This document shows, one piece after another, positions 7,626-64,000 of a stretch of 64,000 nucleotides of DNA (its first letter is position 1; each line of letters begins with the position of its first letter). Both the position numbers and the translations under genes were made by a program. Origin of the DNA: Acidobacteriota bacterium (lineage in GTDB: Bacteria; Acidobacteriota; Thermoanaerobaculia; Multivoradales; J023). Where the stretch lies: NCBI GenBank assembly GCA_029263315.1, contig JAJCXR010000003.1, positions 64,615 to 128,614 on the forward strand. Reading direction: 5' to 3'. Below the pieces are notes generated by a model. That model was not told the DNA's origin, ran no database searches, and worked only from the letters and a program-made list of their open reading frames with translations.

Positions 7626-7829
7626 ATGGAATCGATTGCTGTTTTTGGCGACTTTGGTCTAGGCGGCTCAGTGATGCTGGAGGGCGCTGCCCGAGGATCG
7701 AGGTGGACGCTCGCGAGGCAGCCCATGCTAGCATTCGCCGCCCGAACGTCTGAAGACATTGCAGCAGACAATGCCAGACGCGTCCAAACACCCTGATCAC
7801 CATCCACCCGCCAGTCAGCGAAGAGAGCC

Positions 7830-9631: not shown

Positions 9632-9709
9632 CGAAGACTCCCCCAGACGGACTCTTCCCTCAGCTCAGATAAGACGTTCTCCCCCAGAAAAGACGCTGGA
9701 GCGTAAACC

Positions 9710-10603
9710 ATGAAACTCGATGATATTCGCAAGATCTGTGTCACCGGAGCGGGCCAGATGGGCGCCCAGATCGCTATCCAGGCGGCGCTGCACGGCTACG
9801 AGGTGACCTTGCACGACATTCAAGCCGAGGCCCTGCAAAAGGCCGTTGACGGCAATCGCAAACACCTCGAGCGCCGGGTCGCCAAGGGCAAGATGAGCGA
9901 TGATGAGGTGACGGCGGTCTTCGACCGGCTGCACACCACCACCTCCCTCGAAGAGGCTTGCCGCGACGCCGACTTTGTCATCGAGGCGGTGGTCGAGATC
10001 CTCGACGTCAAGAAACAGGTCTTCGAGCAGTTGGACCGCCACTGCCCACCCCATACCATCCTGGCCACCAACAGCTCCTACCTGGGCAACTCCGAGATCG
10101 CTCCGGCGACCGGACGTCCGGACAAGGTGGTCAACATGCACTTCTTCTACCCGCCGCTGGTCATGAAGCTGGTGGAGGTGGTCAAGGGGGAGCAGACCTC
10201 CGACGAGACCTTGCGCTTGACCGCCGAGTTGGCCAGCGCCATCGGCAAGCAGCCGGTGATCCTGCACAAGGAGCTGTCGGGGTTTCTGGTCAACCGCATT
10301 TTGCGGGCGATCAGCAACGAAGCCTACTTTCTCCTGGAGAACGGCGTTGCCAGCTTTGAGGACATCGACCGAGCCTGTCAACTGGGTCTCAACCATCCGA
10401 TGGGCCCTTTCATGCTCGGCGACTTCAGCGGCCTGGACATCGGTTACGAAGCCCGTCTCGAAAAGTATCGCCAGAGCGGCGATGAGAGCATGAAACCGCC
10501 CGCCGCCCTGGAACGCCGGGTGCAGCGGGGGGACCTGGGACGCAAGACCGGTCGCGGTTTCTATGATTACTCCACCAACCCACCCACGCCCACAGAGGAC
10601 TGA
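9710..10603 (+). CDS. hbd: 3-hydroxyacyl-CoA / 3-hydroxybutyryl-CoA dehydrogenase
   Basis: NAD-binding ICVTGAGQMGAQIA. Motifs NSSYL, FFYPP, LVEVV. The C-terminal domain is GFLVNRIL. Confidence 0.8.
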   Translation: MKLDDIRKICVTGAGQMGAQIAIQAALHGYEVTLHDIQAEALQKAVDGNRKHLERRVAKGKMSDDEVTAVFDRLHTTTSLEEACRDADFVIEAVVEILDVKKQVFEQLDRHCPPHTILATNSSYLGNSEIAPATGRPDKVVNMHFFYPPLVMKLVEVVKGEQTSDETLRLTAELASAIGKQPVILHKELSGFLVNRILRAISNEAYFLLENGVASFEDIDRACQLGLNHPMGPFMLGDFSGLDIGYEARLEKYRQSGDESMKPPAALERRVQRGDLGRKTGRGFYDYSTNPPTPTED

Positions 10604-10606
10604 TTC

Positions 10607-11374
10607 ATGGATATTCAAAACGCAGTTGCCCTCGTCACCGGCGGTGCTTCCGGCCTCGGCGAAGCCACCGTCCGCCGCCTCGTCGCCGCCGGCGCCAAGG
10701 CGGTCATCGTCGACCTCAACGACGAGCGGGGCCAGGCCCTGGCCGAAGAGCTCGGCGAGGGTGTCGTCTACGTCAAGACCAACGTCGCCGATCCGGCCGC
10801 CGTCGATGCTGCCGTCGAGGCGGCCCGTGAGCTCGGTGAGCTGCGCATCGCGGTGAGCTGTGCTGGCATCGGCCCTGCCGCCAAGACCGTCGCCCGCGAC
10901 GGCTCGCCCCATGATTTCGATCTCTACCGCAAGGTGATCGAGGTCAACTTGCTGGGCACCTTCAACGTCCTCAGCCGCTGCGCCGCCGCCATGTCGCGGA
11001 ATGAGCCCAACGCCGACGGCGAACGGGGGGTGGTGATCAACACCGCCTCCGTCGCCGCCATCGAAGGGCAAATCGGCCAGGTGGCCTATTCGTCGTCCAA
11101 GGGCGGCGTCATCGGCATGACCCTGCCCGCCGCCCGTGACCTCACGTCGGTCGGTGTGCGGGTCATGACCATCGCCCCCGGTACCTTCGACACACCCCTC
11201 TTGGCCGGCCTACCCGAAAAGGTCCGCCACTCCTTGGCGGCGGGCATTCCCTTCCCCAAGCGCCTCGGCTTGCCAGAGGAGTACGCCCAGTTGGTGCAGT
11301 CGATCGTCGAAAATGCCTACCTGAACGGTGAGGTGATCCGTTTGGATGGGGCGTTGCGCATGGCACCGCGGTAG
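10607..11374 (+). CDS. Short-chain dehydrogenase/reductase (SDR), 3-hydroxyacyl-CoA dehydrogenase type-2-like
   Basis: TGGASGLG Rossmann motif, NTAS, and YSSSK (YxxxK catalytic). It lies 4 nt after hbd. Confidence 0.8.
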
Positions 11375-11389
11375 GTCCAACTAGCCAAA

Positions 11390-11530
11390 TGCAGGCTCCC
11401 TCTACCGTCCCCGGGAGAGGGCGGGGGGTGAGGGCTCCGATGCAGGCTCCCTCTACCGTCCCCGGGAGAGGGCGGGGGGTGAGGGCTCCGATGCAGGCTC
11501 CCTCTCCCGTCCCCGGGAGAGGGCGGGGGG
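11390..11530. repeat. 51-bp tandem repeat (2.7 copies); each unit holds an imperfect palindrome (ccctctaccg-tcc-ccgggagaggg). REP-like / stacked hairpins.
   Basis: Direct reading: gcaggctccctctaccgtccccgggagagggcggggggtgagggctccgat appears twice, plus a degenerate third copy. Confidence 0.85.
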
Positions 11531-11651
11531 GAGTGACGCTCAGCTGAGACCGACTGCGCTGTCGCCGCTGACGGCATAGTCGAGCCGCGTCTTCTCAAGG
11601 GGGACTTGGTATACTGAACGGGCAAAGTCATCCACCCGAGGCTCACTGCGC

Positions 11652-11826
11652 CAGGAGCAACGGGTCTTGAGACCTGGGAGGTGGCCGATGATATTGCCAG
11701 CCCCCTCACACCTGCGAAGCGGCTTGGCCGATGGCGGTCGGACAAGCCATCTGGGGCTCTGTTGCAGCGAGCGTCACGCCGCAGACGTGGATGCATCGGC
11801 GCTCGAATACCAAGGTATTTCGGGAA
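11652..11826 (+). other. Copy 1 of a duplicated intergenic element (roughly 170 nt, the 3' 65 nt near-identical to copy 2 at 49.9-50.1 kb). Candidate structured RNA or shared regulatory region.
   Basis: ggggctctgttgcagcgagcgtCacGcCgcaGaCgtggatgcatcggCgctcGaatacc aligns to 50027-50090. Upstream it aligns more weakly (tcttgagacctggg vs tcttgtgggcctggg). It contains the GATGCATC palindrome and a gctc/gagc stem. Confidence 0.5.
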
Positions 11827-11957
11827 GGATGTACTCAGGTTCTACCCAACGTTTCTGGGCAGTCTCAGGCGGCTCAGGAATTGTGGCTGGATATCGGATA
11901 GTACTCTTTATGAGGCGCTTACCGTATCATAAAACGGATACTTTGACCCACCAAAAC

Positions 11958-50145: not shown

Positions 50146-53100
50146 ATGCTGCGCAAACCGGTATTCTGGGTGTCTTTTGTCGCCCTCTCCATCGTCGCCT
50201 GGTGGTTCACCCTAAGCACCTTCGAGCAGGCCTACCCGGTGGTCGATCTAGAGCTGACGATGAACCGCAGCGGCGCCCTGGCCAAGGCCGAGGACCTGGC
50301 CTCCCGTCATGGTTGGGGACCACCAGGGGCGACACAGGCAGTCGCCTTCGAGCGGGACGAGACCGTGCAGGTCTTCGTCGAGCTCGAGGCCGGCGGCAAA
50401 GCCGCCTTTCAGGAGATGCTGGCGGCAGATCTCTATGCTCCCTATAGCTGGAAGGTCCGCCGATTCCAGCCCGGCCATACGACGCAGGGCGAGGTCCGTT
50501 TCACTCCGGACGGCGAGCCCTACGGCTTTCGCATCAAGCTGCCAGAAGACGCTCCGGGAGCCAGTTTGGAACCGGCGGCGGCCCGTCGCTTGGCCGAGGA
50601 TGCCGCCGCCGGTGACTGGCGCGTCCACTTCGCCGACTTCGAGCTCATCGAAGGCTCGCAGGAAATGCGTCCCGGCGGACGCACCGACCACACGTTTGTC
50701 TACCAACGTCAGGCACAAAGCCTGGGCGAAGCTCGCTACCGACTCCGCTTGGTGGTCAGCGGCGACCAACTCAGCGAGCTCAGCCACAGCGTCGCCATTC
50801 CGGAGACCTTCCATCGCCGCTTGGCGCAGCTGCGGGCCGGCAATCAGGCCCTCTCCTCCGCCGGCAGGATCGTCATGCTGGTGCTGCTGCTCGGCGGCGG
50901 CTGTCTGACGGGCCTCCTCTTCCTTCTCCGACGACGGGCCCTGTTGTGGCGACAGGCATTGGTTTGGGGGGCAACGATCGGCCTGCTGCAGCTGATGGCC
51001 GGGCTCAATCGATGGCCCCTTTGGTGGATGGAGTACGACACCGCCGTCGGAGCCAAGAGTTTTGTCATCGAAACGATCTTCAACCTGTTTTCAGAGTGCG
51101 TTTGGCTCACCTTGGGCACGGCGTTCGTTTTCATGGCAGCCGAGGGCTTGACCCGCTATGCCCTGCCCGATCAGATTCAGCTCTGGCGTTCTGCGTCGGC
51201 GGCGGCAAGCCCACAGATCCTCGGCCGAACCGCAGCGGCCTACCTGCTGGTTGGCCCCTACTGTGCCTACAAAGTGGCTTTCTTTCTCTTCACTTCCCAA
51301 AACCTCGGTTGGTGGTCACCGGCCTCCCACCTTTCGGACCCCAACATCCTCGCCACGTGGTTACCGTGGCTCAACCCCATCGCCGCAGCCCTGCGGGCTG
51401 GATTCGCCGAGGAATGCCTGTTCCGGGCCCTGCCGTTGGCCATCGCCACGCTGCTCGGGCGGCGCTTCGGACAACCGCGCCTGTGGATCGGCGCCACCTT
51501 GATACTGCAAGCCGTGATCTTCGGCGCCTCTCACGCCAACTATCCCAACCTGCCAGCCCATGCGCGATTGGTGGAGCTGATCCTGCCTTCCATTCTCTAT
51601 GGCTTGATCTACTTGCGCTTCGGCCTGTTGCCGGGAATCCTCCTGCACTTCGCCTTCGATGTCCTGGCCTTTGGCCTGCCGGTGCTCGTCTCCACCGCCC
51701 CCGGCGCGGCGATCCACCTGACAATGCTGGCATTGATCACCCTCCTCCCCATGGCAGTGGTACTGCTGGCGCGCTGGCGTCAAGGTCGCTGGGGCGAGGT
51801 CGACGGGACCCTCCTCAACGGCTCATGGGTACCCCCACCTGCCACTGCGGAGACGCCAGGACGATGGGCACCGAGCCGCCAACTGGACCTGCCAGGCTAC
51901 CGCTGGCTCTATGTAGCGGCGGCTGCGGGGGCCGCTCTGTGGCTGGCGACGAGTCGCTTCGAGTCCGATGCTCCACGCCTCCAGGTCGATCGGAGCACAG
52001 CCATCACGGCCGCCCGGCAAGAGGCCCAGAACCTGGGCTGGGAGCTGAGCCCCCATGCCACCGTGCTCGGCCAAGTGCGCTTCGAGCTCGATGATGGCCA
52101 CCGCTTTGTCTGGCAGCAAGGGGGACGCCAACTCTATGATTCATTGCTGGGCAGCTACCTGCGTCCGCCACGTTGGCACTTCCGTTTTGTCAACTTCAGC
52201 GGCGAGGTTACGGGGCGGGCCGAAGAGCACCAGATATGGATCGATGGGAGGGGCCAAGCCTTTCAGCACTGGCATCGACTACCGGAGGACCGGGACGGCG
52301 CCAACCTCGAGGCCGGGAACGCCAGAACCTTGGCCCTGGCAGCGCTGGCCAGCCGCTACGGCCTGGGGCCAGACCAGCGGATCGAGATATCCGCCCTTCC
52401 GTCACAACGCCCCTCCCGCCGGGATTGGCAATTCACCTTCGAAGACCCCACCGTGCTGCCCGAGACCCCCGGCAAAGCGCTGGCGACCGTCCTCATCGCG
52501 GGCCACGAGGTGATCAGCTCTTTCCGTCAAATCCAACCACCGGAATCGTGGCGCCGGGCCGAAAGGGAACATGCTGCGATCGGCGAAGTGCTGCACCAGG
52601 GGAGCCGACTGTGCTTTTTCTTGGTCTGCCTCGGCGGACTACTGGCGGCGGTGTACCGCTGGAGCCAGCGACGGCTCGCCGGTCGAGGGACCATCCTTTC
52701 CTTGACCCTTCTCAGCCTGCTGGCGGTTGTCATCCTGATCGACCTCTGGCCCCTTCTCCAGGCCGAGCTATCCACCTCCCGGGCTCCCGGCCTGCAGATG
52801 ACAGCTAAGCTCAAGGGCATCCTACCGCCCGCCATCGGCATCCTGGTCGCCGTGGCCCTGCAGATCGGCTTCACCCTGCGCTGGCCTCCGTTGCGCACCC
52901 CGAAAAACCTTCGAGCCGCGTTGCTCCCGGGCTTAGCCCTGGGCACTGTCTGGGCCGGCCTGGCGGCGCTCGTTCTGCGACTGAGGCCGTCTTCGCTGCC
53001 CATCTGGCCGGACTTCACCGTCGCCGGCAGCGCGCTACCTTGGCTGGGCGCCAGCCTGCATCCGCTGGCAACTTTTTTCATCGTCGCTTTGCCAACAGTC

Positions 53101-53556
53101 TGGATCGTCGTCGGTGCGGACCACCTCACCGCCGGATGGCAGCGGCGGCGCGGTTTGGCAGCCTTGCTGATGATCGGTTTGGCGATCGGCTTCACGGGTT
53201 GGTCGGTCGACGACCCATCCCTGTGGTTCTGGCAAGGCTTGCTCTTGGGGGGCTCCCTCCTCGCAGCCTACATCCTGGTACTTCGTCACCAGCTCTCCCT
53301 GGTCGTGCCCGCCGTCGCCGGCGCGGTGGCCTGGCAAACCCTCGGCCAAGGGATTCTGCGGGCTTACCCTGGGGCCTTGCTCGGCAACCTACTTGCCGTC
53401 GTCGTGATCCTGCTGGTGGCTCTGTGGTGGGTACGGGCTCTGGCCGACGACACCATGCCCGCCGCAAGGTCAGTCGAAGCAGAAAGCGCAGGACAACCTA
53501 ATCTTGGTGCAGGGCTTCGATCGGATCCACCGAGGCGGCACGAACGGCAGGTATGA
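50146..53556 (+). CDS. Giant polytopic membrane protein (1136 aa) with an embedded CPBP (CAAX protease / bacteriocin-processing, Abi) intramembrane metalloprotease domain
   Basis: CPBP motifs in order: EECLFRALP (motif 1), FGASHANYP (motif 2), HFAFDVLAF (motif 3). More than 15 predicted transmembrane segments. Large soluble domains at residues 30-230 and 560-750. Confidence 0.65.
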   Translation: MLRKPVFWVSFVALSIVAWWFTLSTFEQAYPVVDLELTMNRSGALAKAEDLASRHGWGPPGATQAVAFERDETVQVFVELEAGGKAAFQEMLAADLYAPYSWKVRRFQPGHTTQGEVRFTPDGEPYGFRIKLPEDAPGASLEPAAARRLAEDAAAGDWRVHFADFELIEGSQEMRPGGRTDHTFVYQRQAQSLGEARYRLRLVVSGDQLSELSHSVAIPETFHRRLAQLRAGNQALSSAGRIVMLVLLLGGGCLTGLLFLLRRRALLWRQALVWGATIGLLQLMAGLNRWPLWWMEYDTAVGAKSFVIETIFNLFSECVWLTLGTAFVFMAAEGLTRYALPDQIQLWRSASAAASPQILGRTAAAYLLVGPYCAYKVAFFLFTSQNLGWWSPASHLSDPNILATWLPWLNPIAAALRAGFAEECLFRALPLAIATLLGRRFGQPRLWIGATLILQAVIFGASHANYPNLPAHARLVELILPSILYGLIYLRFGLLPGILLHFAFDVLAFGLPVLVSTAPGAAIHLTMLALITLLPMAVVLLARWRQGRWGEVDGTLLNGSWVPPPATAETPGRWAPSRQLDLPGYRWLYVAAAAGAALWLATSRFESDAPRLQVDRSTAITAARQEAQNLGWELSPHATVLGQVRFELDDGHRFVWQQGGRQLYDSLLGSYLRPPRWHFRFVNFSGEVTGRAEEHQIWIDGRGQAFQHWHRLPEDRDGANLEAGNARTLALAALASRYGLGPDQRIEISALPSQRPSRRDWQFTFEDPTVLPETPGKALATVLIAGHEVISSFRQIQPPESWRRAEREHAAIGEVLHQGSRLCFFLVCLGGLLAAVYRWSQRRLAGRGTILSLTLLSLLAVVILIDLWPLLQAELSTSRAPGLQMTAKLKGILPPAIGILVAVALQIGFTLRWPPLRTPKNLRAALLPGLALGTVWAGLAALVLRLRPSSLPIWPDFTVAGSALPWLGASLHPLATFFIVALPTVWIVVGADHLTAGWQRRRGLAALLMIGLAIGFTGWSVDDPSLWFWQGLLLGGSLLAAYILVLRHQLSLVVPAVAGAVAWQTLGQGILRAYPGALLGNLLAVVVILLVALWWVRALADDTMPAARSVEAESAGQPNLGAGLRSDPPRRHERQV

Positions 53557-55936
53557 AGCAAGCGACCGCGGCGACCGACAGCAGCAGGAGAGCGGTCAAA
53601 CCAAACGTCATCGGATCCATCGGCTGCAGGCGAAAGAGGGCTCCCCGCAGGGCGAATCCCAAAGGCACGGCCAAGGCCAATCCGATCAGCAAGCCGACGG
53701 ACGCCCGCATCAGGCTCTGTCTGAGGACCAAGGTGAGAACGTCACGGGAGGTGCCGCCCAGAGCCATACGCACCCCCATTTCTCGGGTACGCTGCGCGAC
53801 CCGAAAAGCGATCACACCATACAGCCCGATGGTGGCCAAGAGAACCGCCGCGGCACCGAAAATGCTGAACATGGTCCCCAACAGAATGGGGAAGAACATG
53901 GCCCGGGAGACCACCTCCTGCATCGGCCGGAGATAAAACAACGGCAGGTTGGGGTCGATCTCTCGCACCGTCTGCCGCAACGTCTCGGCAAAGGCCATCG
54001 GTTCCTGAGCTGTCCTGACCACAATCCAAGCCTCGGATTTCGGATACTGGTCAAAGGGAAAATAAATCGCCGGAGCGTCGCCGGGATTGTCAAAGTCTCC
54101 GAAGTGCAGGTTGGGAGCCACGCCGACCACCTCCGCCCAACCGCTATCCGGATCCTCGGGCTCGTTCTTGCCCCGCCACAGACGCAGCCGTTGACCGATG
54201 GCATTCTCGCCCGGCCATTGCTGTCTGGCCAATGCCTCGCTGACCAAGACCACCGCTGGAGCCGCTTGGCGATCCGACGCCGTCACGCCACGGCCATGGC
54301 GGACGGCGACACCGAGGGTTTTCAAATAACCGGGGGTGATTCTCAGGAACCGGGCCACCGGCATATCGGACGCTTCGTCGTAGGCAGTTCCCCGCACCAG
54401 GTACCTCGCCGACACCGAAGTGGTGGTATCCAAAGGCAGAATCGTCCCGATACCCGCCGCGCTGACCCCAGGCTTGGCGGCCAGCCTTGACTCCAAATCC
54501 TCAAAGAAGGCCTGCCAATCTTCCCGCTCCGGGTACTTCGCATCGAACAACGCTAGGCGGGCGGTCAATATCTGCTGCGGCTCAAGATGTAGATCGTAGT
54601 TGTTGATCGTGGCCACGGTCCGCACCATCAGACCGGCACCGATCAACAGGGGAAACGACACCGCCAGTTGGATGATGACCAACTTACGGCTCAGCCAACC
54701 CATGCGGAAGCTGCTCGAACCGCGAGCCGCATCCTGTAGCACCCGGTTCAGGTCCGGCTTTGACGCCTGCCAGGCCGGTCCCAAGCCGGCCGCCAGCGCC
54801 GCCAGCACGGTGACACCAAGGGTGAAGAACAACACCCGGCCATCGATCTGAAACGACACCCAGAAAGGCGGATCCATATCGGCGATGCTGGCGCTCAGAG
54901 CCCCGACGGCGAGATGCGCCAGCATCACACCGACGGCGACTCCGCCGGTCGCCAACAAGCCCGCATCCAACAGCACTTGACCCAGCGTTTGAGCACGGCT
55001 GGCCCCTAAGGCCGAGCGGATCGCCAGCTCATGTCCCCGCGATGCGGCGCGGACGATCAACAGATTCGCCACGTTGATCGAAGCGATCAGCAAGACCAGC
55101 AGCGTCGCCGCCAACATCACCCCCAGCAACAGTTGGGCGCGTTGGTCGATGAAGGAGTCGACATAGGGCTTGACCGCCACTCCGATGCCCTTGTTGGCCT
55201 CGGGATACTGTTCCTCCAGGCGTCGGCCGATGGTCTCCATCTCAGCCGCCGCCTGTTTGATGGAGACGCCGTCGGCCAAACGGCCAAAGACCCCGAGGCG
55301 CATTCCGGAGCCCCGCTCCGTCTCACCGGGCGACAACTGCAAAGGCAACCAAACGTCGTGCCGGAAAGGGAAACGGAAACCCGGTGGAAGCACACCGATC
55401 ACCGTCGACGGTTCGGCGTTGACCCGCACGACCCGGCCCACGATGTCGGGGTCGGAGTCGTAGCGCTGTCGCCACACATGGTGACCGATGAGCAAAACAG
55501 GGGGTGCCCCCGGCCGTTCGTCCTCAGCGCGGAATCCCTGCCCTAGGAAAGGCTTGACCCGCAGCAGGTCGAGGAAGCTAGCCGAGATCCTGACGCCGTG
55601 GTAGCGCTCCGGCAGGTACTCGTCGCTCAGGTTGACGGTGATCGGATCGAATCCGGCCAAAGCTTCGAAACTCTGCTGCTGGCTCCGCCAGTCGACAAAA
55701 TCATGCTCGCTGACCCGCGTTCCGCTGGGGGACGGATTGAAATCCCGCTGCTCCAACTGCAGCAAACGCTCGGATTCTTCGAAGGGCAAACCGCGCAAAA
55801 CCGCCCCGTCGATCACCGCAAACATCGAGACGGTCAGGCCGATCCCCAACGCCATGGCCAAGACGGCCCCGAGACTGGAACCTGGGTTCTTGATCAATCG
55901 CCGGAGACTGTAACGAAGCTCGCTGAAAAGGCTCAT
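53498..55936 (-). CDS. FtsX-family ABC transporter permease with duplicated domains (ADOP / MacB-like, no fused ATPase)
   Basis: ADOP-type N-terminus MSLFSELRYSLRRLIKNPG. Two FtsX 4-TM modules, each preceded by a large periplasmic domain. 812 aa. Confidence 0.8.
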   Translation of the reverse strand: MSLFSELRYSLRRLIKNPGSSLGAVLAMALGIGLTVSMFAVIDGAVLRGLPFEESERLLQLEQRDFNPSPSGTRVSEHDFVDWRSQQQSFEALAGFDPITVNLSDEYLPERYHGVRISASFLDLLRVKPFLGQGFRAEDERPGAPPVLLIGHHVWRQRYDSDPDIVGRVVRVNAEPSTVIGVLPPGFRFPFRHDVWLPLQLSPGETERGSGMRLGVFGRLADGVSIKQAAAEMETIGRRLEEQYPEANKGIGVAVKPYVDSFIDQRAQLLLGVMLAATLLVLLIASINVANLLIVRAASRGHELAIRSALGASRAQTLGQVLLDAGLLATGGVAVGVMLAHLAVGALSASIADMDPPFWVSFQIDGRVLFFTLGVTVLAALAAGLGPAWQASKPDLNRVLQDAARGSSSFRMGWLSRKLVIIQLAVSFPLLIGAGLMVRTVATINNYDLHLEPQQILTARLALFDAKYPEREDWQAFFEDLESRLAAKPGVSAAGIGTILPLDTTTSVSARYLVRGTAYDEASDMPVARFLRITPGYLKTLGVAVRHGRGVTASDRQAAPAVVLVSEALARQQWPGENAIGQRLRLWRGKNEPEDPDSGWAEVVGVAPNLHFGDFDNPGDAPAIYFPFDQYPKSEAWIVVRTAQEPMAFAETLRQTVREIDPNLPLFYLRPMQEVVSRAMFFPILLGTMFSIFGAAAVLLATIGLYGVIAFRVAQRTREMGVRMALGGTSRDVLTLVLRQSLMRASVGLLIGLALAVPLGFALRGALFRLQPMDPMTFGLTALLLLSVAAVACFIPAVRAASVDPIEALHQD

Positions 55937-55937
55937 C

Positions 55938-56891
55938 TCAAGTCATTGGGGCCGGCGACGATCGCGCCAACGCCTCAATGCAGAGGGCTGTCGTGATCTC
56001 CTCCGAACCGTAATACCCTTCATCGAAATCAATGTAGTAGGCCGCCCGCGGCCAACTGCCGTCCTCGTTCTGGCGATCGAGCAAGTAGCGTACCGCTGCG
56101 GCGAGGATCGATGGCTCAGCATACCCAAGATTCAGCAGGCTGGCCACCGCCATGGCGGTGTGAAGGACACTGCCCCCAAGCCCCCCATCGCCGTCTTGGC
56201 GAGCCAGAATTCGTTCGCTGGCCGCTGACCGTGCCGCCGCCAAGCGCCTTACGCCATGGAAGTAAGCCCGCGACAACACATAGAAAAAGAGTAGGTCGTC
56301 GACACCGTAGACAGTGCGTTTGCCCTCCTCGCCGTCGGTGGTGAGATGGACCAAATAGTCACACGCCGCCAGGGTCTCCGGTCGTTCGCCCAGGTAGAGA
56401 AGCACGTTGGCGTTGACCAGACCACACACATTGTTGGCCCCACCGTCGCTGAGGAAGGTGCGGAATCGACCGTCGGCATCGCGGTTGAGCAGAAAGAGCC
56501 GATAGTTGAGCCCCAACAGCAAGTAGTCGTGAGCGTCCTTCAGCACATAGGCCGCGCAAGCGGTGTCGTCGAGGTCCGGCGGCAAGGTTTCGGCATTCCC
56601 CAGGCTGAAGTAGCGCCACAAACCCGGGGCTTCCATTTCCCCGAGCAGAAAGGTGGAACCACGGGAGACGATGGAGGGCACCCGAAGGTCGTCACTGTAA
56701 GCCAACGAGTAGAGGATATAGGAGGTGCCATAGGGCGTGCTCTTGAGTTGAGGATTGGCTTCCATCGCCAGGTCACTATAACGATAGGTCTTGAGCTCGC
56801 CGCTGGGCAACTGTTGCCGATCGAGAAAACCGACCGCGCGGGACAGAGCTGTGCGGACCCGCGTCGCTGCCGCTTCCTCAGCCGGATTCAT
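55938..56891 (-). CDS. Prenyltransferase / squalene-oxidase repeat (alpha/alpha-toroid) protein, 317 aa
   Basis: LLDRQNEDGSWP is the canonical QxxDGSW repeat of prenyltransferase-beta / terpene-cyclase folds. Further degenerate repeats (LNRDADGRF, LARQDGDGGLGG). Confidence 0.55.
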   Translation of the reverse strand: MNPAEEAAATRVRTALSRAVGFLDRQQLPSGELKTYRYSDLAMEANPQLKSTPYGTSYILYSLAYSDDLRVPSIVSRGSTFLLGEMEAPGLWRYFSLGNAETLPPDLDDTACAAYVLKDAHDYLLLGLNYRLFLLNRDADGRFRTFLSDGGANNVCGLVNANVLLYLGERPETLAACDYLVHLTTDGEEGKRTVYGVDDLLFFYVLSRAYFHGVRRLAAARSAASERILARQDGDGGLGGSVLHTAMAVASLLNLGYAEPSILAAAVRYLLDRQNEDGSWPRAAYYIDFDEGYYGSEEITTALCIEALARSSPAPMT

Positions 56892-58156
56892 GGCGTCGAC
56901 TCCAGCTCTTTTTTATCCGCCCCCACCGCCCGCCGTGCCGCGACCCAAGTGGAGACCAAACGGCCGACCGAGACCAGGGGGCGGAGGACAATCGAGCGAA
57001 ACATACGCCACCCTATGTAAACCATGAACAGGGCCATGAAGCCGGACATCAACAGCGAGGAAAGACTCACCTCCGGGGATCCGGCGGCGAAGGCCATCAC
57101 CTTGTCGGGAAACAGTCGCACGGAGCTCCAGACGCGAGGGGCGATCTTCCAAATGAAAAAACCCCACACCGCAATGCTCAAGACCGAATAGACGGCCAGC
57201 GTGGCAGTCACCCGTTCCGACCACGGTAACTCCTCCGCCGGCCGGCCCCGCAAGCGATGCCAATAGTGCTTGATGATGCGGCTAGGCTGACGACTGAGAT
57301 TGGTGACTCCTAGGGCATCCGCCAGCATCCAATAGCCGTCGAACTTGAAAATCGGGTTCAGCGAAAACAGCGAGCTGCCGGCGATCATCAAGATGCCGAC
57401 CCCGAGGGGCTCCCAACCGGTGAGGCTGTATGCCACGAGATAGACAGCCGCCGTCAACCATTGGAAGTAGAGGCCCCCGAGATCCACTACGACCCGCTGC
57501 TTGCGTTGCAGGCGCCAGGCCGAGCTGACGTCGCTGTAGAGGGCAGGGTAGATCAAATAGAAGGTGAATCCGATGTCACTGGGCCGGGCTCCATAGTAGG
57601 CGCAGGCCGTGGCATGGCCCAGCTCATGGAACACGATCGACAACATCAGGAGCGCGTAGCCGGCCCAGAAACTAGAGTCGTGAAACTGCTTGGTCAGGGG
57701 TTCGGCCCCCCAAATCGCAAAACCCATGGCGACGCTGAGAAGTAGCGCGGCGACCACTTGGGGCTTGAATAGGGGCGTCAGGACAGAGACGATCCGCACC
57801 ACCGCGACTTCGGGTAGGAGCCGAATGCGGAACCAGAAACCCAAGGGATTGTCGTTGGCATTGTCTTCAATGCTCTCGATACGCTCGAGCAATTTCTGAT
57901 ACTTCGCCTCGAGCTCCTCACCGGAAATGGTGCTCCCTTGGGACCGCGACAGTGCCGCGGCGATCTCCTCGGAGCTGACACCCGATTGCCGGAGCTGCAA
58001 TAGCCGATGGGCGCTGGCCGACAAACGCATGTTGCTGCCGTTACGACCGCTCAACAAATAGGTCGGTTTGGCCTCGGAGATATCGACCTGCCGACGCTCC
58101 GTCAAGCCGATCCAGCGGGGTCCTTCCACCGTCTCTTGGGCGCCGCCGGTTGTCAT
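56888..58156 (-). CDS. Membrane-embedded zinc metalloprotease, M50/site-2-protease-like (HExxH within a transmembrane segment), with N-terminal cytoplasmic domain
   Basis: LSIVFHELGHATACAYYG in a hydrophobic segment. About 8 transmembrane segments. Start at MTTGG (58156), avoiding overlap; the track ORF to 58201 is over-extended. Confidence 0.55.
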   Translation of the reverse strand: MTTGGAQETVEGPRWIGLTERRQVDISEAKPTYLLSGRNGSNMRLSASAHRLLQLRQSGVSSEEIAAALSRSQGSTISGEELEAKYQKLLERIESIEDNANDNPLGFWFRIRLLPEVAVVRIVSVLTPLFKPQVVAALLLSVAMGFAIWGAEPLTKQFHDSSFWAGYALLMLSIVFHELGHATACAYYGARPSDIGFTFYLIYPALYSDVSSAWRLQRKQRVVVDLGGLYFQWLTAAVYLVAYSLTGWEPLGVGILMIAGSSLFSLNPIFKFDGYWMLADALGVTNLSRQPSRIIKHYWHRLRGRPAEELPWSERVTATLAVYSVLSIAVWGFFIWKIAPRVWSSVRLFPDKVMAFAAGSPEVSLSSLLMSGFMALFMVYIGWRMFRSIVLRPLVSVGRLVSTWVAARRAVGADKKELESTP

Positions 58157-60102
58157 GGCGTCGCCTCTTCCATCGTCGAGGCGCGAGCGAGCCGATGCCA
58201 AAGGACTGCCGAGCGTAGAACAAAGGCCGTCGTCAGATCACAGATACCTGATACCCCCTGAATTCGCTGCAGCAAGCTCTGCGCCCGCTCGAGCTCGTCC
58301 AGGTCAATGGCCCGGGTGCGGACGCGGGCCCGCCCTTGGGCCAAGGCGAGCCCCTGAAGCGCCAAGGCAGCGCTCATAGCGTCGCTGGCCGACGCGCCCC
58401 AGTCGGCGCTTCGCCACGCCTGCCGCAGGAAAGACTCGGCCCGTCCCACCACCGAAGATGTCGAACGCAGGGCGACCAAACAACGCAAGCAAGCCACGGT
58501 GGGATACAGACCACGATAGGCGCTGCTGCGCCAACTACCGTCGGCTTGCTGCTGCTCTTCGAGCCAGGTCAAACCCCGCTCGATGGGCTCCGCAAATCGC
58601 TGCCCGTCGAAGAGAGCCAGGGCTTCCAAGAGTTGGGCCGTGACCGCCGCATCCGGCTCACCCACGGGCAGCGTCTCACCCTGTGGCGATCGCCGGATCC
58701 AAGTCTCGACGGCCCCATCGGGTCGCAACACACCAAAATCTTCGAGCTGAGACAGGAGTTGGGCACAGTGTTGCTCGGCATCTTCTCGGCGTCCGGCGCG
58801 TAGTAGGATGCGCAGAATCAAACCCAGATGATCGCTGTCGGCAGGTAGCCCCATGGAGACCGCAGAATAGCTCCAGCCGCCACCGGGGCGGCGGCGGTAG
58901 ACGAGATAGTCCACTTGGCTTTGAATCAGCGGTTGCAGTTGGCCTTCCAAGAGGCTGTCGACGTCGCAGAGGGCATCGGCCGCCATGGCCAATGGCAGCA
59001 CATCGCCTACTTTCGAAGTGACGTCTCGCCCTGCGTCGGTGGGCCGCCTTCCACCGCTAGCACCCCATCGGTGCAAGATTCGCTGCACCGCATCCCATGC
59101 CACCTCCTGCCAGGCATCCGAGGGCGGTGGCAGGGCTACGGCAAGCCGACGGGTTGTCGCCTGCCGCTTCTCGGCGATGTGCTCGAGTTGTTGCAACACA
59201 GCCTGGCAGCGTTCGCGGATCGCCGACGTTTGCCGGTGCCAGAGCAAATCCGGATAGCCCTCGGTCAAGCGCTCCGACTCGGCGATGGCTTCCAGGGCAA
59301 GCCTCATGGTGTATCCCACATGGCCACCGTAGTATATCTCGCGACGGGTGCGCTCTCCGTCGGCTCGCAGTTGCCGACGGTCGCCAGCAAAGGCCGCAGC
59401 GGTGACGCGGCTGAGCAGCAACGAAGGAAAACCACTTTCAAGATCCGCCCGCCAGTCGGTCAGATCATCGAGCATCTGTCGAGCTGTGTAATAGCGTTCG
59501 ATGCTTTGGGTCAACGGTTCGTAGCACCGATCGTCCTTGGCCAACGCCGCCAGTCCCGCGACGGAAACTTTGGCCAGGCCGCACTTGCCGACCGCGACCG
59601 AGACCGCCTGCGCTTCCGTGAAACGCTCCCAGCTCGCCTCCGGACTAGCCAGCTCACGTTCCAGGAGACAGGCTTCGGTATAGGCGACCCAATAGTCGCG
59701 GAAACGGTTCCAAAAGGGGTCCGTCGATTCGATAAGGGGATGCAGGAGGCGATAGCCCTCGAACTGCATGACTTCGATGCCCAAGACATCGCCGGTGATG
59801 TGCTCGGTCTCTTCGTCCATCACTCGATCTGCAACGATGATGGAATCGAAGATCAGGCCGGCACCTCGGGCTAGAGGCTCGACCTGGGCCAGCTTCAAGT
59901 CTGGAAAGGCATCGAGGAAAAGGTAGGGGTAACCGTGGTAGATCGAGTCGGGGTCGCTGCATTGGTGTCTCACACCCTTCGGCCATGCCCCGACCGCCAG
60001 CGCACGGGTCGCCGCGGAGTCGACCATCAGGCGCTGTATCTCTGGCGGAAAAAGGCCTGATGACACGTCCTTCGGAGGCGACGCCTTGGTGTCGCTGGTC
60101 AT
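58153..60102 (-). CDS. Terpene-cyclase / prenyltransferase-like alpha/alpha-toroid repeat protein (649 aa) with an unassigned N-terminal domain
   Basis: C-terminal half holds QxxDGSW-type repeats (LEEQQQADGSWRS, YRRRPGGGWSY). The N-terminal 300 aa are unassigned and include an acidic segment QMLDDLTDWRADLESG. Confidence 0.5.
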   Translation of the reverse strand: MTSDTKASPPKDVSSGLFPPEIQRLMVDSAATRALAVGAWPKGVRHQCSDPDSIYHGYPYLFLDAFPDLKLAQVEPLARGAGLIFDSIIVADRVMDEETEHITGDVLGIEVMQFEGYRLLHPLIESTDPFWNRFRDYWVAYTEACLLERELASPEASWERFTEAQAVSVAVGKCGLAKVSVAGLAALAKDDRCYEPLTQSIERYYTARQMLDDLTDWRADLESGFPSLLLSRVTAAAFAGDRRQLRADGERTRREIYYGGHVGYTMRLALEAIAESERLTEGYPDLLWHRQTSAIRERCQAVLQQLEHIAEKRQATTRRLAVALPPPSDAWQEVAWDAVQRILHRWGASGGRRPTDAGRDVTSKVGDVLPLAMAADALCDVDSLLEGQLQPLIQSQVDYLVYRRRPGGGWSYSAVSMGLPADSDHLGLILRILLRAGRREDAEQHCAQLLSQLEDFGVLRPDGAVETWIRRSPQGETLPVGEPDAAVTAQLLEALALFDGQRFAEPIERGLTWLEEQQQADGSWRSSAYRGLYPTVACLRCLVALRSTSSVVGRAESFLRQAWRSADWGASASDAMSAALALQGLALAQGRARVRTRAIDLDELERAQSLLQRIQGVSGICDLTTAFVLRSAVLWHRLARASTMEEATP

Positions 60103-60151
60103 CGGGCAGGCTCGGGCATCAATCGGGTTCCTCCCCGTGGCACCGCAACGT

Positions 60152-60190
60152 CAAAGGCAAAAGATGGGCGCGACCTTTGACGCGCCCATC
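60152..60190 (-). terminator. Rho-independent terminator or attenuator directly downstream of the precursor-peptide gene (minus-strand hairpin gatgggcgcg-tcaaaggt-cgcgcccatc then TTTTGCCTTTG)
   Basis: Direct reading. It sits between the precursor stop (60197) and the next minus-strand gene start (60102). Confidence 0.6.
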
Positions 60191-60196
60191 ATCTTC

Positions 60197-60376
60197 TCAA
60201 ACCAAAACCGGCTCGGAAGGCTCACTCGGCTCGACGCTGAAAGACCCACAATTCACGTCGCACCACAGGCCATCGGCGCCCACCGCAGCGGCGAGCTCAA
60301 TGCGGCGTTCCAGATCCTCGACGTCGAGATCCTCAGCGTTCAGGGATTCAATCTCGAGAAGTTTCTCATCTTTCAT
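60197..60376 (-). CDS. RiPP-like precursor peptide (59 aa): acidic helical leader plus Cys-containing core
   Basis: MKDEKLLEIESLNAEDLDVEDLERRIELAAAVG | ADGLWCDVNCGSFSVEPSEPSEPVLV. Strong SD gaaaggaagaagcg before ATG 60376 (the track start at 60406 is a TTG over-extension). Own terminator. Flanked by a radical SAM/SPASM enzyme, a protease and a permease. Local AT-rich DNA. Confidence 0.6.
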   Translation of the reverse strand: MKDEKLLEIESLNAEDLDVEDLERRIELAAAVGADGLWCDVNCGSFSVEPSEPSEPVLV

Positions 60377-61015
60377 CGCTTCTTCCTTTCTGAAAAGGGG
60401 TTTCAAGGATCGAGCATGGCCTTCCTAGTGGTCAGGCTATACCCTAGGCTACACGCCTTCTTTATCTTCGGCCCTTGCCGACCGAAGTGCCGAATCTCGG
60501 CTTCAACCTTATCTTCAACATTCCGCGTAACCAACCCATCCGGCAGCCACCTCACTTGGCAGCCGAAGCAAGCCGACTGCACAGACTTCATCACGAGCGT
60601 GGAGCTGTGCTACCCATCTCCTTTGCCGAAATCGTACTTCTCAAGAAACTATTGTGCTTCAGTTGAATTCGACGCACCTTATCCTTATCCATAGCCAGGC
60701 CGACCCCACTCTGGATTGGCGTATAGGTAACGCCTTACAAGCTTTCAACTTACCTAGCACGATATTTGAGACCTGAGAAAATGTCAATAGCGAAGTTGAA
60801 AGGTGAGTGTTTCCGAGAGCTGAGAATCGGGCGGCATGCCGGGCCGCCGGACAAGAGATCGCAAACCCGAGGGATCCGGTTTGAAACGGCTGGCCATCCT
60901 GTACAATCTGAGGTTGATCGTTCTAATCAAGTTTTGGCAGCTCAACCTTGGCGGTTGAGCCTGAGCAAGGCTACGGCAATCAACTCGTGTCAGCTCGGCC
61001 CCACCGGAGAATCGA

Positions 61016-61999
61016 ATGAGCCAGAAAACAACCTCGAAGCAAACTTCTGGACAGTCGACGCCAGACGACGCCTCCGCCATCGATTTGCACAACCTCTCAG
61101 AACCTCTGTTGCAACGATTGCAGCAGCTAGAAGCCTTGAATGGGTACGACCAATGTTTCCACCGCGCCGTGCCCAACAACTACGTCTATATGCTGATCAA
61201 TGCCAGCTATCCACTGGAAGACTACTTGGCCGGCATTGCCACCAACACGGCACCACTCAATCGTGCCAATGGCCGTGTCTATCGATACTGTGTGGACAAG
61301 GTTAAGGAGCTACCACGGCAGGCTGTGCTCGGAAACGATGAGCTGATTCAATGGTTGGGCGGATGGAAAAAAACGACAACCACCTCGGTCAATCTCAAAG
61401 GGGTGGCCTTTGCCGAGAAGGTTTTTGCCTTTCTCGCAGACGCAGGCCTCGACGCCCGACGCCGCTGGCGAACAGAGGCTCCTGAGATGCATGACATGTT
61501 CACGCGGCAGATCCCCCACAAGATCGAGCATCTTCTGCGACTCAATCTGAGCATCCCCCATGACCTGGTGACCCAGTCCCTACAACGGCTGATGGATGAG
61601 GTATTCGGGGCTTCCGATACATTCTCATTGATCGAACGGGTTGAGGTCGCCAAACCCAACCTCAGCAATGACACCTCAGTGACGAATTACCCAACCATCA
61701 TCCTTTACCTCGTCGTTGATGCTAACGAGCCGGCGCGCCGTGACGAAGTCGATCAGCTGTTGCGTCTACTTCATCCGTGGGCTGCCGGTTTTGAGCACGG
61801 CCTCGGGGCGGAGTCGGACTTCGCCGACCTATGGTACCCATTCCTCACAGTTACCCAAGGGTACAAGCTTTGGAAACGGTACTTGCGGGTGGTGGGATTG
61901 CTCGACGAAGTCTACGACCGGGACTTCAACTATGCCTATTTGAGAGGCAGGCCAACACTTAGGAACTTTCCGCAAGTCCTATCCCAGTACCGGCCTTAG
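61016..61999 (+). CDS. Hypothetical protein (327 aa), no recognisable domain, low-GC gene inside the RiPP-like locus
   Basis: Long ORF with SD ggaga. GC clearly below the genome average. Converges on the radical SAM gene with a 13-bp gap. Confidence 0.5.
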   Translation: MSQKTTSKQTSGQSTPDDASAIDLHNLSEPLLQRLQQLEALNGYDQCFHRAVPNNYVYMLINASYPLEDYLAGIATNTAPLNRANGRVYRYCVDKVKELPRQAVLGNDELIQWLGGWKKTTTTSVNLKGVAFAEKVFAFLADAGLDARRRWRTEAPEMHDMFTRQIPHKIEHLLRLNLSIPHDLVTQSLQRLMDEVFGASDTFSLIERVEVAKPNLSNDTSVTNYPTIILYLVVDANEPARRDEVDQLLRLLHPWAAGFEHGLGAESDFADLWYPFLTVTQGYKLWKRYLRVVGLLDEVYDRDFNYAYLRGRPTLRNFPQVLSQYRP

Positions 62000-62012
62000 T
62001 ACACCTATCCTC

Positions 62013-63521
62013 CTACTGGTCGCAGACCCGATCGACGTGAGCGCTGAGGGCTTCGCCGGAGGTGTAAGCTTGGAAAGCGTCGGCAACACTAGAACGAAAG
62101 CGCGACGCAAAGGCATCGCAAAAGTTCATGTGCAAGCTGCCGGTCTTGCCCTCGGCCAAGACCGCACATCCACCTCCGCAGTGCATGTTATAACGGCACT
62201 TACGGCAGGCGGGGTTGCTCGCCACCGTCCGACTCCGCCACAATTTCTCATTGTCGCCGCGGATGTGTAGCTCTCCCTCTTCGGAGATGTAGCCGAGACG
62301 AATGTTGGGGTTTCCGGTGCGTTCCCAACAGGCGTAGATGTCACCGAAGGCATCGAAGATGTACATCCCGACATGGGCACTGCAGAAACTCTCGCGAACC
62401 GGTGGCATACCGCTGCCATTGCCCGATTCGAGGAATAAGCGGTGGGCTTGATTGCGAGTGGAATCGTCCGGCCGCCCCAAGACCTTTATACTCGGATGCT
62501 CATCACGCATCGCAGCCAACGCCTGATCGAGCTCATAACTGTTCATCGTCGTCTGCTTGGAAACGTTGTCGTTGCCGGGCTGAATAGGAGCCGTATAGGC
62601 GCTGAAAGTGGGCATCTCGGGCCAACCTTCGGCGTAAATCGCCTCCGCCACCGCAGGCATTTGATCGATGTTGTTGCGATCGACATTGAGCCGCACGCTG
62701 ATACCGACGCCTTTTTCCAGGGCCCAGGTCACGTTGCGTCGGATCTTCTCCCAAGAGCCGGAGCCATCGGCATAGATGCGCCGTCGGTCGTGCTCTTCCG
62801 GGGGGCCATCCAGGGTCACCTGGATATTGGCGATCCGCTGCGGTGAGATGAGGTCGCCATAGGCCTCGATTTCCGTCGCATTGCTGACCGCCGAAAAGGT
62901 GGCTGGACCAAGCTCCAAGGCCTTGTCGACAATGTTCTGAATGGTTGGCAGATTCGCCGCCAGCAGGGGCTCGCCGCCGAAAAATAGTATCGAGCGACTG
63001 GGCGCCTGGCCGTCCTTGATGCCGTGTCTAGCCTCAATTTGAGGCATCGCACCGAAAATCCGATCTATCATCTCGGGCTTGATGGTGCGCAGCAGATGGT
63101 TGTACTTGGGATTCGTCCGCATGTGATCTTGGAAACAATAAGCACAGCGCAGATTGCAATTGTAGGTTGGCATGATGACGTAGCTCGGCATCTTCGCCAC
63201 CTTCTGCTGATGGATCTTGGTGGCCATCTTGACCAACAACTCTTCCTCTTCCTCGACACTCATATTGGTCAAATAACCGCGACGTATCAGGGTTTCGAGG
63301 GCCCCATCGGACGGCGCCTTCACCTCCTCCTCGACGGTCGACGGCTCAGAAACCCAAGCGCCGTAAAGAGGTTGAGGAGCCCGGCGAGCTTCCAGCGACC
63401 GCAAGTAGTTTGCTACTTTGCGTGAAACCTTGTCATAGGCCCCGGTATAACCGTGCACGAGGAGCATTTCTTCGCTGGTGTCCGGTAAGTCAACATAGAT
63501 CGTGTAGCTACTCGCGCGCAT
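62013..63521 (-). CDS. Radical SAM enzyme with C-terminal SPASM domain and about 130-aa N-terminal extension (possible RiPP recognition element)
   Basis: CNLRCAYC (CxxxCxxC). SPASM auxiliary-cluster cysteines C…CWERTG…CRKCRYNMHCGGGCAV. Start at ATG 63521 with SD aaggagg; the track ORF to 63608 is over-extended. Confidence 0.8.
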   Translation of the reverse strand: MRASSYTIYVDLPDTSEEMLLVHGYTGAYDKVSRKVANYLRSLEARRAPQPLYGAWVSEPSTVEEEVKAPSDGALETLIRRGYLTNMSVEEEEELLVKMATKIHQQKVAKMPSYVIMPTYNCNLRCAYCFQDHMRTNPKYNHLLRTIKPEMIDRIFGAMPQIEARHGIKDGQAPSRSILFFGGEPLLAANLPTIQNIVDKALELGPATFSAVSNATEIEAYGDLISPQRIANIQVTLDGPPEEHDRRRIYADGSGSWEKIRRNVTWALEKGVGISVRLNVDRNNIDQMPAVAEAIYAEGWPEMPTFSAYTAPIQPGNDNVSKQTTMNSYELDQALAAMRDEHPSIKVLGRPDDSTRNQAHRLFLESGNGSGMPPVRESFCSAHVGMYIFDAFGDIYACWERTGNPNIRLGYISEEGELHIRGDNEKLWRSRTVASNPACRKCRYNMHCGGGCAVLAEGKTGSLHMNFCDAFASRFRSSVADAFQAYTSGEALSAHVDRVCDQ

Positions 63522-64000
63522 TGTTACTCCTCCTTGAGCCCACACGGACTCTAACGCCTGCGTCAACCTGTCGACGGGGCTTCTACTTCTAGAGATGGGA
63601 GAGACCACGACGAGGCTACACGCTTGCGGGGGAACCTGTCAAGACGAAAAGACCTCCCGCGATGGTGCCCAGCACGCCACGGCCGTGAAGGCGTCAATGC
63701 CCTAATCGACAATACCCTTCGGGTTGGTCGGCCGAGAATGGCCTTTGGCGACAACTTCGAGCGCTACGCTGCTGGGTCAAAGACGCCGATGGCATGCCGC
63801 TGGGTCAGCTCTTCAGGTGGCGATGGGAGCAAGGCCATCTTGCTCCGTCCCCCACTGGGGAGTGCAGCGTCGCTGCTAGCAGTCTGTGGTGAAAGTGCTG
63901 CGCGAATGAGAGCGAGATTTTTTTCGTCAGAACAAGGCGCAGAATTGCATGAATATTGGTGATCTTCAGAGATTCTGTAACACAGTTCTGGCGGAAAAGG

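Follow-up and report, generated by a model that had tools for sequence, protein, structure and literature searches.

The window analyzed here is a 64,000-nucleotide (nt) stretch of contig JAJCXR010000003.1 (assembly GCA_029263315.1, positions 64,615 to 128,614). Three minus-strand open reading frames (ORFs) fill its positions 55938-60102 and encode proteins of 649, 437 and 317 amino acids (aa). With the precursor gene and the radical S-adenosylmethionine (rSAM) enzyme gene upstream, they probably constitute an operon for a peptide made by the ribosome and modified after translation (RiPP). Sequence, structural models and analogy with characterized enzymes point to a peptide-terpenoid hybrid, namely a Trp-prenylated, rSAM-modified peptide whose prenyl chain is cyclized by one or both of two class II terpene cyclase toroids. 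The sequences and models themselves show the folds, the motifs, the coupling of the genes and the conserved synteny with the precursor, and none of the rival explanations weighed below accounts as well for the acid motifs and for the conserved link to the precursor.

QxxDGSW-type motifs, which an earlier note made from the sequence alone (the original prediction) had reported in both outer proteins, are present in each: LEEQQQADGSWRS at residues ~514-526 of the 649-aa protein (QQADGSW = 518-524) and LLDRQNEDGSWP at ~270-281 of the 317-aa protein (NEDGSW = 275-280). Both proteins also exceed the 26.1-bit gathering score of Pfam SQHop_cyclase_C (31.4 bits, E 1.3e-7 and 27.8 bits, E 1.6e-6, respectively). 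The AlphaFold (AF2) model of the 317-aa protein has a pLDDT of 94.3 and matches known monodomain class II cyclases or cyclase domains in Foldseek with TM-scores of 0.75-0.81, including drimenol synthase 9mhs (E 3e-15, query-normalized TM 0.80, root-mean-square deviation 3.0 Å) and the monodomain cyclases 8pak, 8paj and MstE (TM ~0.76). A profile of 46 homologues (A2), compared against the PDB, recovered the cyclase domain of drimenol synthase 9mhs (E 7e-25, over residues 34-312), squalene-hopene cyclase (E 3e-15) and AstC (E 5e-14). The motif P105-D-L-D-D-T110 lies in register with DLDTT of drimenol synthase, the same element that reads DLNTT in the aligned AsDMS 'D333N' mutant entries 9m7d-f. 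D106 and D108 are invariant among the 46 homologues, in which conservation of D109 and T110 is 90% or higher. By predicted fold and catalytic motif, the 317-aa protein is a class II terpene cyclase. A glycoside-hydrolase barrel, which the original prediction had named as a competing fold, was rejected: it is represented by a single entry (MmpH) far down the Foldseek list for this model, and all top structural matches are terpene cyclases.

The C-terminal (C) domain of the 649-aa protein gave a similar result. A phmmer search of the PDB matched it to 8paj, a 365-aa monodomain cyclase (E 8e-7), with PADSDH opposite PADADS, and Foldseek returned 8paj, 8pak, MstE and drimenyl diphosphate synthase. 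Its motif D422-S-D424-H425 retains the acid Asp, in a column that close homologues fill with H, W, N or A. On alignments and models we assign the toroids of both outer proteins to the class II terpene cyclases, monodomain MstE/drimenol-synthase/AstC type, with DxD(D/T/H) at the expected position. They resemble MstE, 8paj/8pak, drimenol synthase (9mhs/AsDMS), AstC and SsDMS in having a single beta-type alpha/alpha toroid, the DxD(D/T) acid motif in register and QW-like repeats. The known enzymes, some of which carry a fused HAD phosphatase domain, differ in acting on prenyl-aromatic small molecules or free farnesyl diphosphate (FPP); in the window the substrate is presumed to be a prenylated peptide, and translational coupling ties the 317-aa gene to that of a RiPP protease.

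The same fold could in principle act on the peptide itself, by LanC-like or protein-prenyltransferase-beta-like alkylation or cyclization of Cys. LanC and FTase-beta share the alpha/alpha-toroid, the precursor cores are Cys-rich, and C3d/A2M thioester domains appear among the distant fold matches of the toroids. However, no Cys or His is invariant or nearly so in either toroid alignment, leaving no conserved Zn ligands, and neither toroid protein matches a LanC or protein-prenyltransferase Pfam family. What is conserved instead is the class II DxD acid motif, which lines up with that of drimenol synthase and 8paj, and the top structural matches are all terpene cyclases. We therefore reject a LanC-like or Zn-dependent reading on the lack of conserved Cys or His, and regard peptide-directed toroids as very improbable. 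The original prediction was right that the outer proteins are not LanC and right about the superfamily; its protein-prenyltransferase beta-subunit option did not hold, and no Zn site is conserved.

The prenyl-transfer step is most likely located in the N-terminal half of the 649-aa protein, judging from its profile alignment and model. The model (pLDDT 83.7) has two domains, and the extra N-terminal domain of roughly 300 aa in the original prediction is a real, well-modeled, all-helical unit (residues ~20-345). The function listed there as unknown can now be replaced by a predicted trans-polyprenyl-synthase fold. A profile of 18 homologues of this P domain (A3), compared against the PDB, matched polyprenyl synthetase 4lob (E 1.1e-5) in an alignment that begins only just before the first aspartate-rich motif (FARM) and includes both it and the second (SARM). 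The P-domain 'fvadkliD' stands opposite the 4lob FARM 'VHDDVVD', and 'ArqlldDLsdWkeD' opposite the SARM 'AFQIIDDILDYTSD'. Foldseek matched the P domain to GGPP/OPP synthases (target-normalized TM 0.65-0.70) and to the Trp prenyltransferase Ord1 (9v4g, E 1.3e-3). The FARM-like motif is D92-R-V-M-D96, with DxxxD throughout the family, and the SARM reads Q209-M-L-D212-D213-L-T-D216-W217. Among the P-domain homologues D92, D96, Q209, D212, D213, D216 and W217 are invariant or nearly so, and G172-K173 is conserved. Pfam polyprenyl_synt does not match the 649-aa protein even at E 0.1, which argues that it is not an ordinary chain-elongating synthase. By alignment and modeled structure, the domain has a trans-isoprenyl-diphosphate-synthase (trans-IDS) fold like those of ComQ, PalQ, Ord1 and the P domain of ChrPC. 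Of the site types named in the original prediction, a DxD acid motif is conserved in the 317-aa family, Asp-rich motifs occur in the P domain, and no Zn site is conserved in the toroids.

This arrangement of domains has a precedent. According to a 2026 review, ChrPC joins a trans-IDS-like 'P' domain to an MstE-like cyclase 'C' domain; the enzyme prenylates an internal Trp of a RiPP with C10-C20 donors and cyclizes the prenyl group (Hubrich et al., Chem 2024; PMC13290415). In trans-IDS-like peptide prenyltransferases, a Gln just upstream of the SARM and the first SARM Asp recognize the indole, and the characterized members are all Trp-specific (PMC13290415). The window protein resembles ChrPC in that its monodomain class II (MstE-like) cyclase domain comes after a trans-IDS-like P domain, a Gln is conserved upstream of the SARM (Q209), and its gene adjoins a RiPP precursor with an internal Trp (W38). 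ComQ, PalQ and Ord1 share the all-alpha isoprenoid-synthase fold, the Asp-rich donor site and the Gln-SARM element, but are single-domain enzymes without a terpene cyclase and leave a linear prenyl group on a cyclized 6/5/5 tryptophan; the window P domain is fused to a cyclase and has DxxxD as its FARM. The review lists only ChrPC and NctPC as characterized fused prenyltransferase-cyclase (PC) peptide maturases (PMC13290415). An exhaustive HMMER search with the P domain found 229 representatives at E <= 1e-30. We sampled architecture in 171 relatives at the 50% identity level (the best 150 of that search plus word-index matches), and 104 of these carry the PC fusion, so the fusion is not rare; the remaining 67 have the P domain alone. 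The abstract of the 2024 ChrPC paper is likewise said to describe such fusions as common among the installing maturases. A word-indexed protein search understated the family, returning 24 relatives, and only 4 with the P-domain alignment as query.

The genes and other features of the locus are as follows.

62013-63608, minus strand: radical SAM/SPASM peptide maturase (ORF of 531 aa; the public gene call starts at 63521 and gives 502 aa)
61016-61999, plus strand: orphan gene of 327 aa, between the precursor and rSAM genes
60197-60376, minus strand: precursor peptide of 59 aa (ATG at 60376; the ORF reaches a TTG at 60406)
60159-60190, minus strand: terminator-like hairpin between the precursor and PC genes
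58153-60102, minus strand: PC protein (prenyltransferase-cyclase fusion) of 649 aa, with P and C domains
59068-60102, minus strand: P domain of the PC protein (residues 1-345), trans-isoprenyl-diphosphate-synthase-like fold
58153-59004, minus strand: C domain of the PC protein (residues ~367-649), class II terpene cyclase toroid
56888-58156, minus strand: HExxH membrane protease of 422 aa from the ATG at 58156 (public gene call; the ORF at 56888-58201 gives 437 aa)
55938-56891, minus strand: stand-alone class II terpene cyclase of 317 aa, with P105-D106-L-D108-D109-T110
53498-55936, minus strand: ADOP-family duplicated MacB/FtsX permease (NCBIfam TIGR03434)
50146-53556, plus strand: membrane protein of 1136 aa with an Rce1-like/CPBP domain, convergent with the operon

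The ATG of the protease gene overlaps the stop codon of the PC gene (ATGA), and the ATG of the 317-aa cyclase gene overlaps that of the protease gene in the same way; the PC, protease and cyclase genes are translationally coupled through these overlaps. The ADOP permease gene starts 1 nt past the cyclase stop codon, and the precursor gene lies 94 nt upstream of the PC gene.

The precursor has the sequence MKDEKLLEIESLNAEDLDVEDLERRIELAAAVGADGLWCDVNCGSFSVEPSEPSEPVLV, and a leader profile built from related loci matches it at E 2e-21. The original prediction had placed a leader peptide beside the toroid genes, and a leader-type peptide gene does lie directly upstream, at 60197-60376/60406. Its leader, E(I)ESLN..LDVEELE.R(I/L)E(L/M), recurs in the precursors of seven related loci (L003, L005, L006, L008, L009, L090 and L092), as does the pairing of an aromatic residue with a neighboring Cys. 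The core begins with GLWC in the window and with MGWVC, DCWVNC, DSWATCC, GLYC or GCY elsewhere, and L006 and L090 encode five and two precursor copies, respectively. No Pfam or NCBIfam model matches the precursor family. We propose that the core starts near G33, with W38 as the prenyl acceptor and C39 and C43 as the rSAM targets. A 63-aa ORF at 60403-60594, called as a gene in the public assembly, was considered as a second precursor and rejected for its lack of leader similarity.

About ten loci keep the order of rSAM/SPASM enzyme, precursor(s), PC protein and then usually an HExxH protease. The series rSAM-precursor(s)-PC-protease, with or without a cyclase, occurs in L003/L004, L005, L006, L008, L009, L090 and L092 at 35-65% PC identity. 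The full cassette, including a cyclase of the 317-aa type, is found in L003/L004, L005, L006 and L009. L092 has the rSAM, precursor, PC and protease genes, L008 has a glycosyltransferase gene between those for PC and protease, and in L090 the rSAM gene, two precursors and PC are followed by an ABC ATPase, FtsX, an Rce1-like protein and a glycosyltransferase. In at least nine independent loci, drawn from both PC clades, the PC gene lies directly downstream of a conserved-leader precursor. The PC proteins of L007 and L002 (9559-12052) belong to the clade whose C-domain motif is DADD and accompany a different type of peptide, with another leader, ends GGWH... and GGYWD..., and cores ...KGGWHVAVVVSRD and ...KAGGYWDGFTLVIGKA; L007 (4748-10031) encodes a genuine polyprenyl synthase and a B12-binding rSAM enzyme together with the peptide and PC protein. 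EryCIII-like glycosyltransferase genes directly adjoin PC genes at L008 10061-11287, L090 10323-11504 and L091 8198-9418, which suggests glycosylated product variants in these three loci.

The 317-aa family extends well beyond such cassettes, with 248 relatives when one genome per species was searched. Three Anaerolineae metagenome-assembled genomes (MAGs), represented by L012 (3778-10993), L013 and L021, contain split RiPP versions of the system. These comprise an HExxH protease and an rSAM enzyme, a 103-aa precursor of the Frankia_peptide/NHLP type that has a Trp-rich core and ends in SKGCDWICYGYKWG, a stand-alone 323-aa P-like protein without a Pfam match, a B12-rSAM enzyme and a 317-family cyclase. 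In cyanobacteria, a 317-family cyclase domain occurs within long open frames (L057, L059 and L063, from Nostoc, and L026 and L086). The L057 frame (6425-11746), the only one of these scanned, also matches PhyH, thioesterase, UbiA prenyltransferase and TPR, and its context looks meroterpenoid-like, as for MstE, rather than RiPP-like. A fusion reading of this 1773-aa ORF was set aside in favor of adjacent genes or domains that share one frame.

Such contexts bear on the possibility that an ordinary free-terpenoid pathway (sesqui- or diterpene, or hopanoid-like) merely lies beside an rSAM RiPP cluster, with the 649-aa protein as a bifunctional prenyl synthase/cyclase. Of the 80 best genome loci of the 317-aa family, 62 have no RiPP or other cluster genes within their 10-kb flanks, and some adjoin UbiA prenyltransferase or polyprenyl synthase-like genes. 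The distant PC homologues of L001 (Hyalangium gracile, 10001-11902) and L091 (6001-8136), whose C-domain motifs are DAET and DIGT, sit beside nonribosomal peptide synthetase/polyketide synthase and kinase genes and have no recognizable precursor nearby. The position of the PC gene behind a conserved-leader precursor in the independent loci counted above, its ATGA coupling to the leader protease gene and the conservation of the core Trp/Tyr all argue against a free-terpenoid pathway, which we consider improbable. The original prediction had also allowed for a hopanoid or cell-wall context elsewhere; homologues of the 649-aa protein adjoin precursor peptides, not hopanoid or cell-wall genes.

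For a peptide-terpenoid product, we envisage a pathway of six steps. The conserved acidic leader of the 59-aa precursor would be bound and guide modification. The rSAM/SPASM enzyme would then cross-link C39 and C43, probably as thioethers. The P domain would ionize a C15-C20 prenyl diphosphate on its Asp-rich motifs and transfer the prenyl group to W38, after which protonation would cyclize the pendant chain, with D424 of the C domain, D108 of the 317-aa cyclase, or both in sequence as the acid. The membrane HExxH protease would cut off the leader, and the ADOP permease would export the product. Which residue accepts the prenyl group, how long the donor is, how the steps follow one another and what cross-links form are proposals in this scheme. 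The original prediction of peptide prenylation or cyclization thus pointed to the right area, a RiPP operon. Since the toroids are predicted class II cyclases and prenyl transfer is placed in the P domain, it would be the isoprenoid on the peptide, not the peptide itself, that is cyclized. A quality-control or immunity role, offered in the original prediction for these proteins, found no support.

The two toroids differ in how well they keep the catalytic acid. The stand-alone cyclase is present in the window and in L003, L005, L006 and L009, where the C-domain motifs are, in that order, DSDH, DAWH, DGAH, DADH and DADH. No separate cyclase lies within the sequenced flanks of L007, L008, L002, L090 and L092, and their C domains read DADD. 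Throughout the clade without a separate cyclase (P0012-P0022) the C domain has D-A/V-D-D in every member, whereas in the clade with one the fourth motif residue is His and the acid column holds D, H, W, N or A. The stand-alone enzyme is of another, very widespread lineage (drimenol synthase/AstC-like) and keeps an invariant DxDD(T). From these alignments we infer that the C domain in the window clade is under relaxed selection for catalysis and that the recruited cyclase performs or extends ring formation.

This division of labor could also be read in the reverse order, with the 317-aa cyclase acting first on a free prenyl diphosphate (e.g., FPP to drimenyl diphosphate), the P domain transferring the cyclized product and the C domain serving merely as a binding module. 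Free FPP is indeed the substrate of drimenol synthase, AstC and SsDMS, the solved enzymes most closely related to the 317-aa protein, and the acid position of the C domain is unconserved in the window clade. Drimenyl diphosphate, however, is not allylic, so its class-I-type ionization by the P domain would be difficult. The PC protein alone would suffice in the sister clade, because its C domain keeps DADD without a separate cyclase. Both points count against the reversed order, as do the review's account of ChrPC, in which cyclization follows transfer to the peptide (PMC13290415), and the MstE-type monodomain cyclases, which act on acceptor-attached prenyl groups according to their PDB entry titles. 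We judge the reversed order unlikely and favor cyclization after transfer to the peptide.

A more specific version of cyclization on the peptide would make the window clade a distinct RiPP subclass. Its product would be an rSAM cross-linked, Cys-containing peptide with a polycyclic terpene on Trp, its fused C domain a non-catalytic or partly catalytic substrate holder, and the recruited drimenol-synthase/AstC-like stand-alone cyclase the enzyme that performs or extends ring formation, in a two-cyclase relay on the peptide-bound isoprenoid; the Rce1-like protein may recognize the prenylated peptide for processing or immunity. We advance this version only tentatively, as one that may well turn out otherwise.

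Several observations weigh against a peptide-terpenoid product. The window cluster contains no prenyl-diphosphate synthase gene, and the L001 and L091 homologues have neither a recognizable precursor nor an rSAM gene nearby. In the window protein the FARM is degenerate (D-R-V-M-D, not DDxxD) and His takes the fourth place in the C-domain motif. The L008 and L092 precursors carry Tyr instead of Trp, which is unfavorable because the characterized trans-IDS-like peptide prenyltransferases are all Trp-specific. The correlation between a separate cyclase and a degenerate acid motif comes from about ten loci, several of them on short contigs. The likeness to ChrPC, finally, is one of architecture and fold rather than direct alignment, and we limit the claim to the same architecture and predicted mechanism, not orthology.

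The maturation partners are consistent with a RiPP operon and lie outside the named families. The rSAM gene matches Pfam Radical_SAM (E 1.5e-12) and passes only the generic NCBIfam SPASM model (49.6 bits, cut-off 27). Among named families it comes closest to PapB ranthipeptide (6e-36), TIGR04463 'vs C-rich' and CefB, with scores that stay well under their cut-offs (best score 124.3 bits against 340). The window enzyme shares radical SAM and SPASM domains and CxxxC Cys-containing cores with the PapB, TIGR04463 and CefB maturases but falls below every family cut-off, as do the rSAM enzymes of the related loci. Orthologues lie upstream of the precursor in L003, L005, L006, L008, L009, L090 and L092. 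A sigma-54-dependent activator (GAF + Sigma54_activat + HTH_8) is encoded directly upstream of the rSAM gene in L003 (6372-7886), L005 (4357-5871) and L006 (2509-4095); none was seen at that position in the window.

The protein between the two toroid proteins, described in the original prediction as an M50-like protease, is a probable intramembrane HExxH metalloprotease (FHELGHA) and, from its sequence and position, the probable leader peptidase. Its Peptidase_M50 and M50B matches are weak and below the Pfam cut-off; the best match is NCBIfam daptide_HExxH (NF041824; E 3.9e-35, 121.7 bits against a cut-off of 300), followed by YydH/LiaK (NF058609; E 1e-14, 54.9 against 225). By sequence it is related to the daptide and YydH/LiaK families without being a member. 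Like daptide MpaP and YydH/LiaK it is a polytopic membrane protein with HExxH, but it scores far below the curated cut-offs and no other daptide genes are present. Orthologues lie downstream of the PC gene in L003, L005, L006, L008 (past the glycosyltransferase gene), L009 and L092.

The ADOP permease scores 813 bits with NCBIfam TIGR03434 against a cut-off of 622 and is probably an exporter or immunity pump; in L003, L005 and L090, too, MacB/FtsX permeases lie beside the cassette. The closest related contigs are Thermoanaerobaculia MAGs, which together with the ADOP permease indicates an acidobacterial host. The convergent 1136-aa polytopic membrane protein matches Pfam Rce1-like PF02517 when residues ~400-550 are scanned alone (E 1.7e-11, 44.7 bits against 22.4); a full-length Pfam scan gave no match. 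The motifs of this Rce1-like/CPBP 'type II CAAX prenyl endopeptidase' domain are EECLFR, FGASH and HFAFD. In a sequence search of all related loci retrieved, the 1136-aa protein was found in the window only, and the 251-aa Rce1-like gene inside the L090 PC operon is related to it at the Pfam level only. The protein may be linked to the operon through immunity or processing, and it is possible that a prenyl-peptide protease family is tied to a prenylated RiPP.

The remaining features lie between the precursor and rSAM genes and just downstream of the precursor. G+C content is 0.55-0.57 at 60001-64000, compared with 0.60-0.65 in the neighboring 10 kb, and this low-G+C stretch contains the precursor, the rSAM gene and the 327-aa orphan gene. 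The orphan (61016-61999) has no Pfam or NCBIfam family and is missing at the equivalent position in related loci; we consider it a doubtful part of the system. The hairpin at 60159-60190 or, more narrowly, 60163-60190 has a perfect GC-rich 10-bp stem and an 8-nt loop, followed by a T-run, and possibly acts as an attenuator that tunes the precursor-to-enzyme ratio, resembling RiPP-operon attenuators. As one such site was found in the stretch where ~0.9 is expected by chance, the hairpin on its own is only suggestive.

Set against ChrPC, the window system also has a second cyclase, which stands alone and comes from another lineage (drimenol synthase/AstC-like), an rSAM/SPASM maturase together with cores that contain Cys, an HExxH protease of daptide-like type and an ADOP permease. 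Its leader family has no Pfam or NCBIfam model, its C-domain motif is DSDH with an acid position that drifts within the clade, and its host appears to be acidobacterial (Thermoanaerobaculia-like relatives). The peptide-terpenoid RiPP type was first described in 2024, and the window locus is an undescribed version of it, not a categorically new system. It nonetheless defines a coherent, uncurated family, with at least 100 PC fusions among the 171 relatives sampled. Three chemistries, namely radical-SAM cross-linking, prenylation of an aromatic residue and terpene cyclization started by a proton, are predicted to converge on a single short peptide. The family also offers a natural experiment: in one clade a separate cyclase has been recruited and the fused cyclase domain appears to be losing its catalytic acid. 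Should the product be confirmed, these operons would supply peptide-terpenoid scaffolds that are new, along with a portable pair of enzymes for placing cyclic terpenes on peptides.

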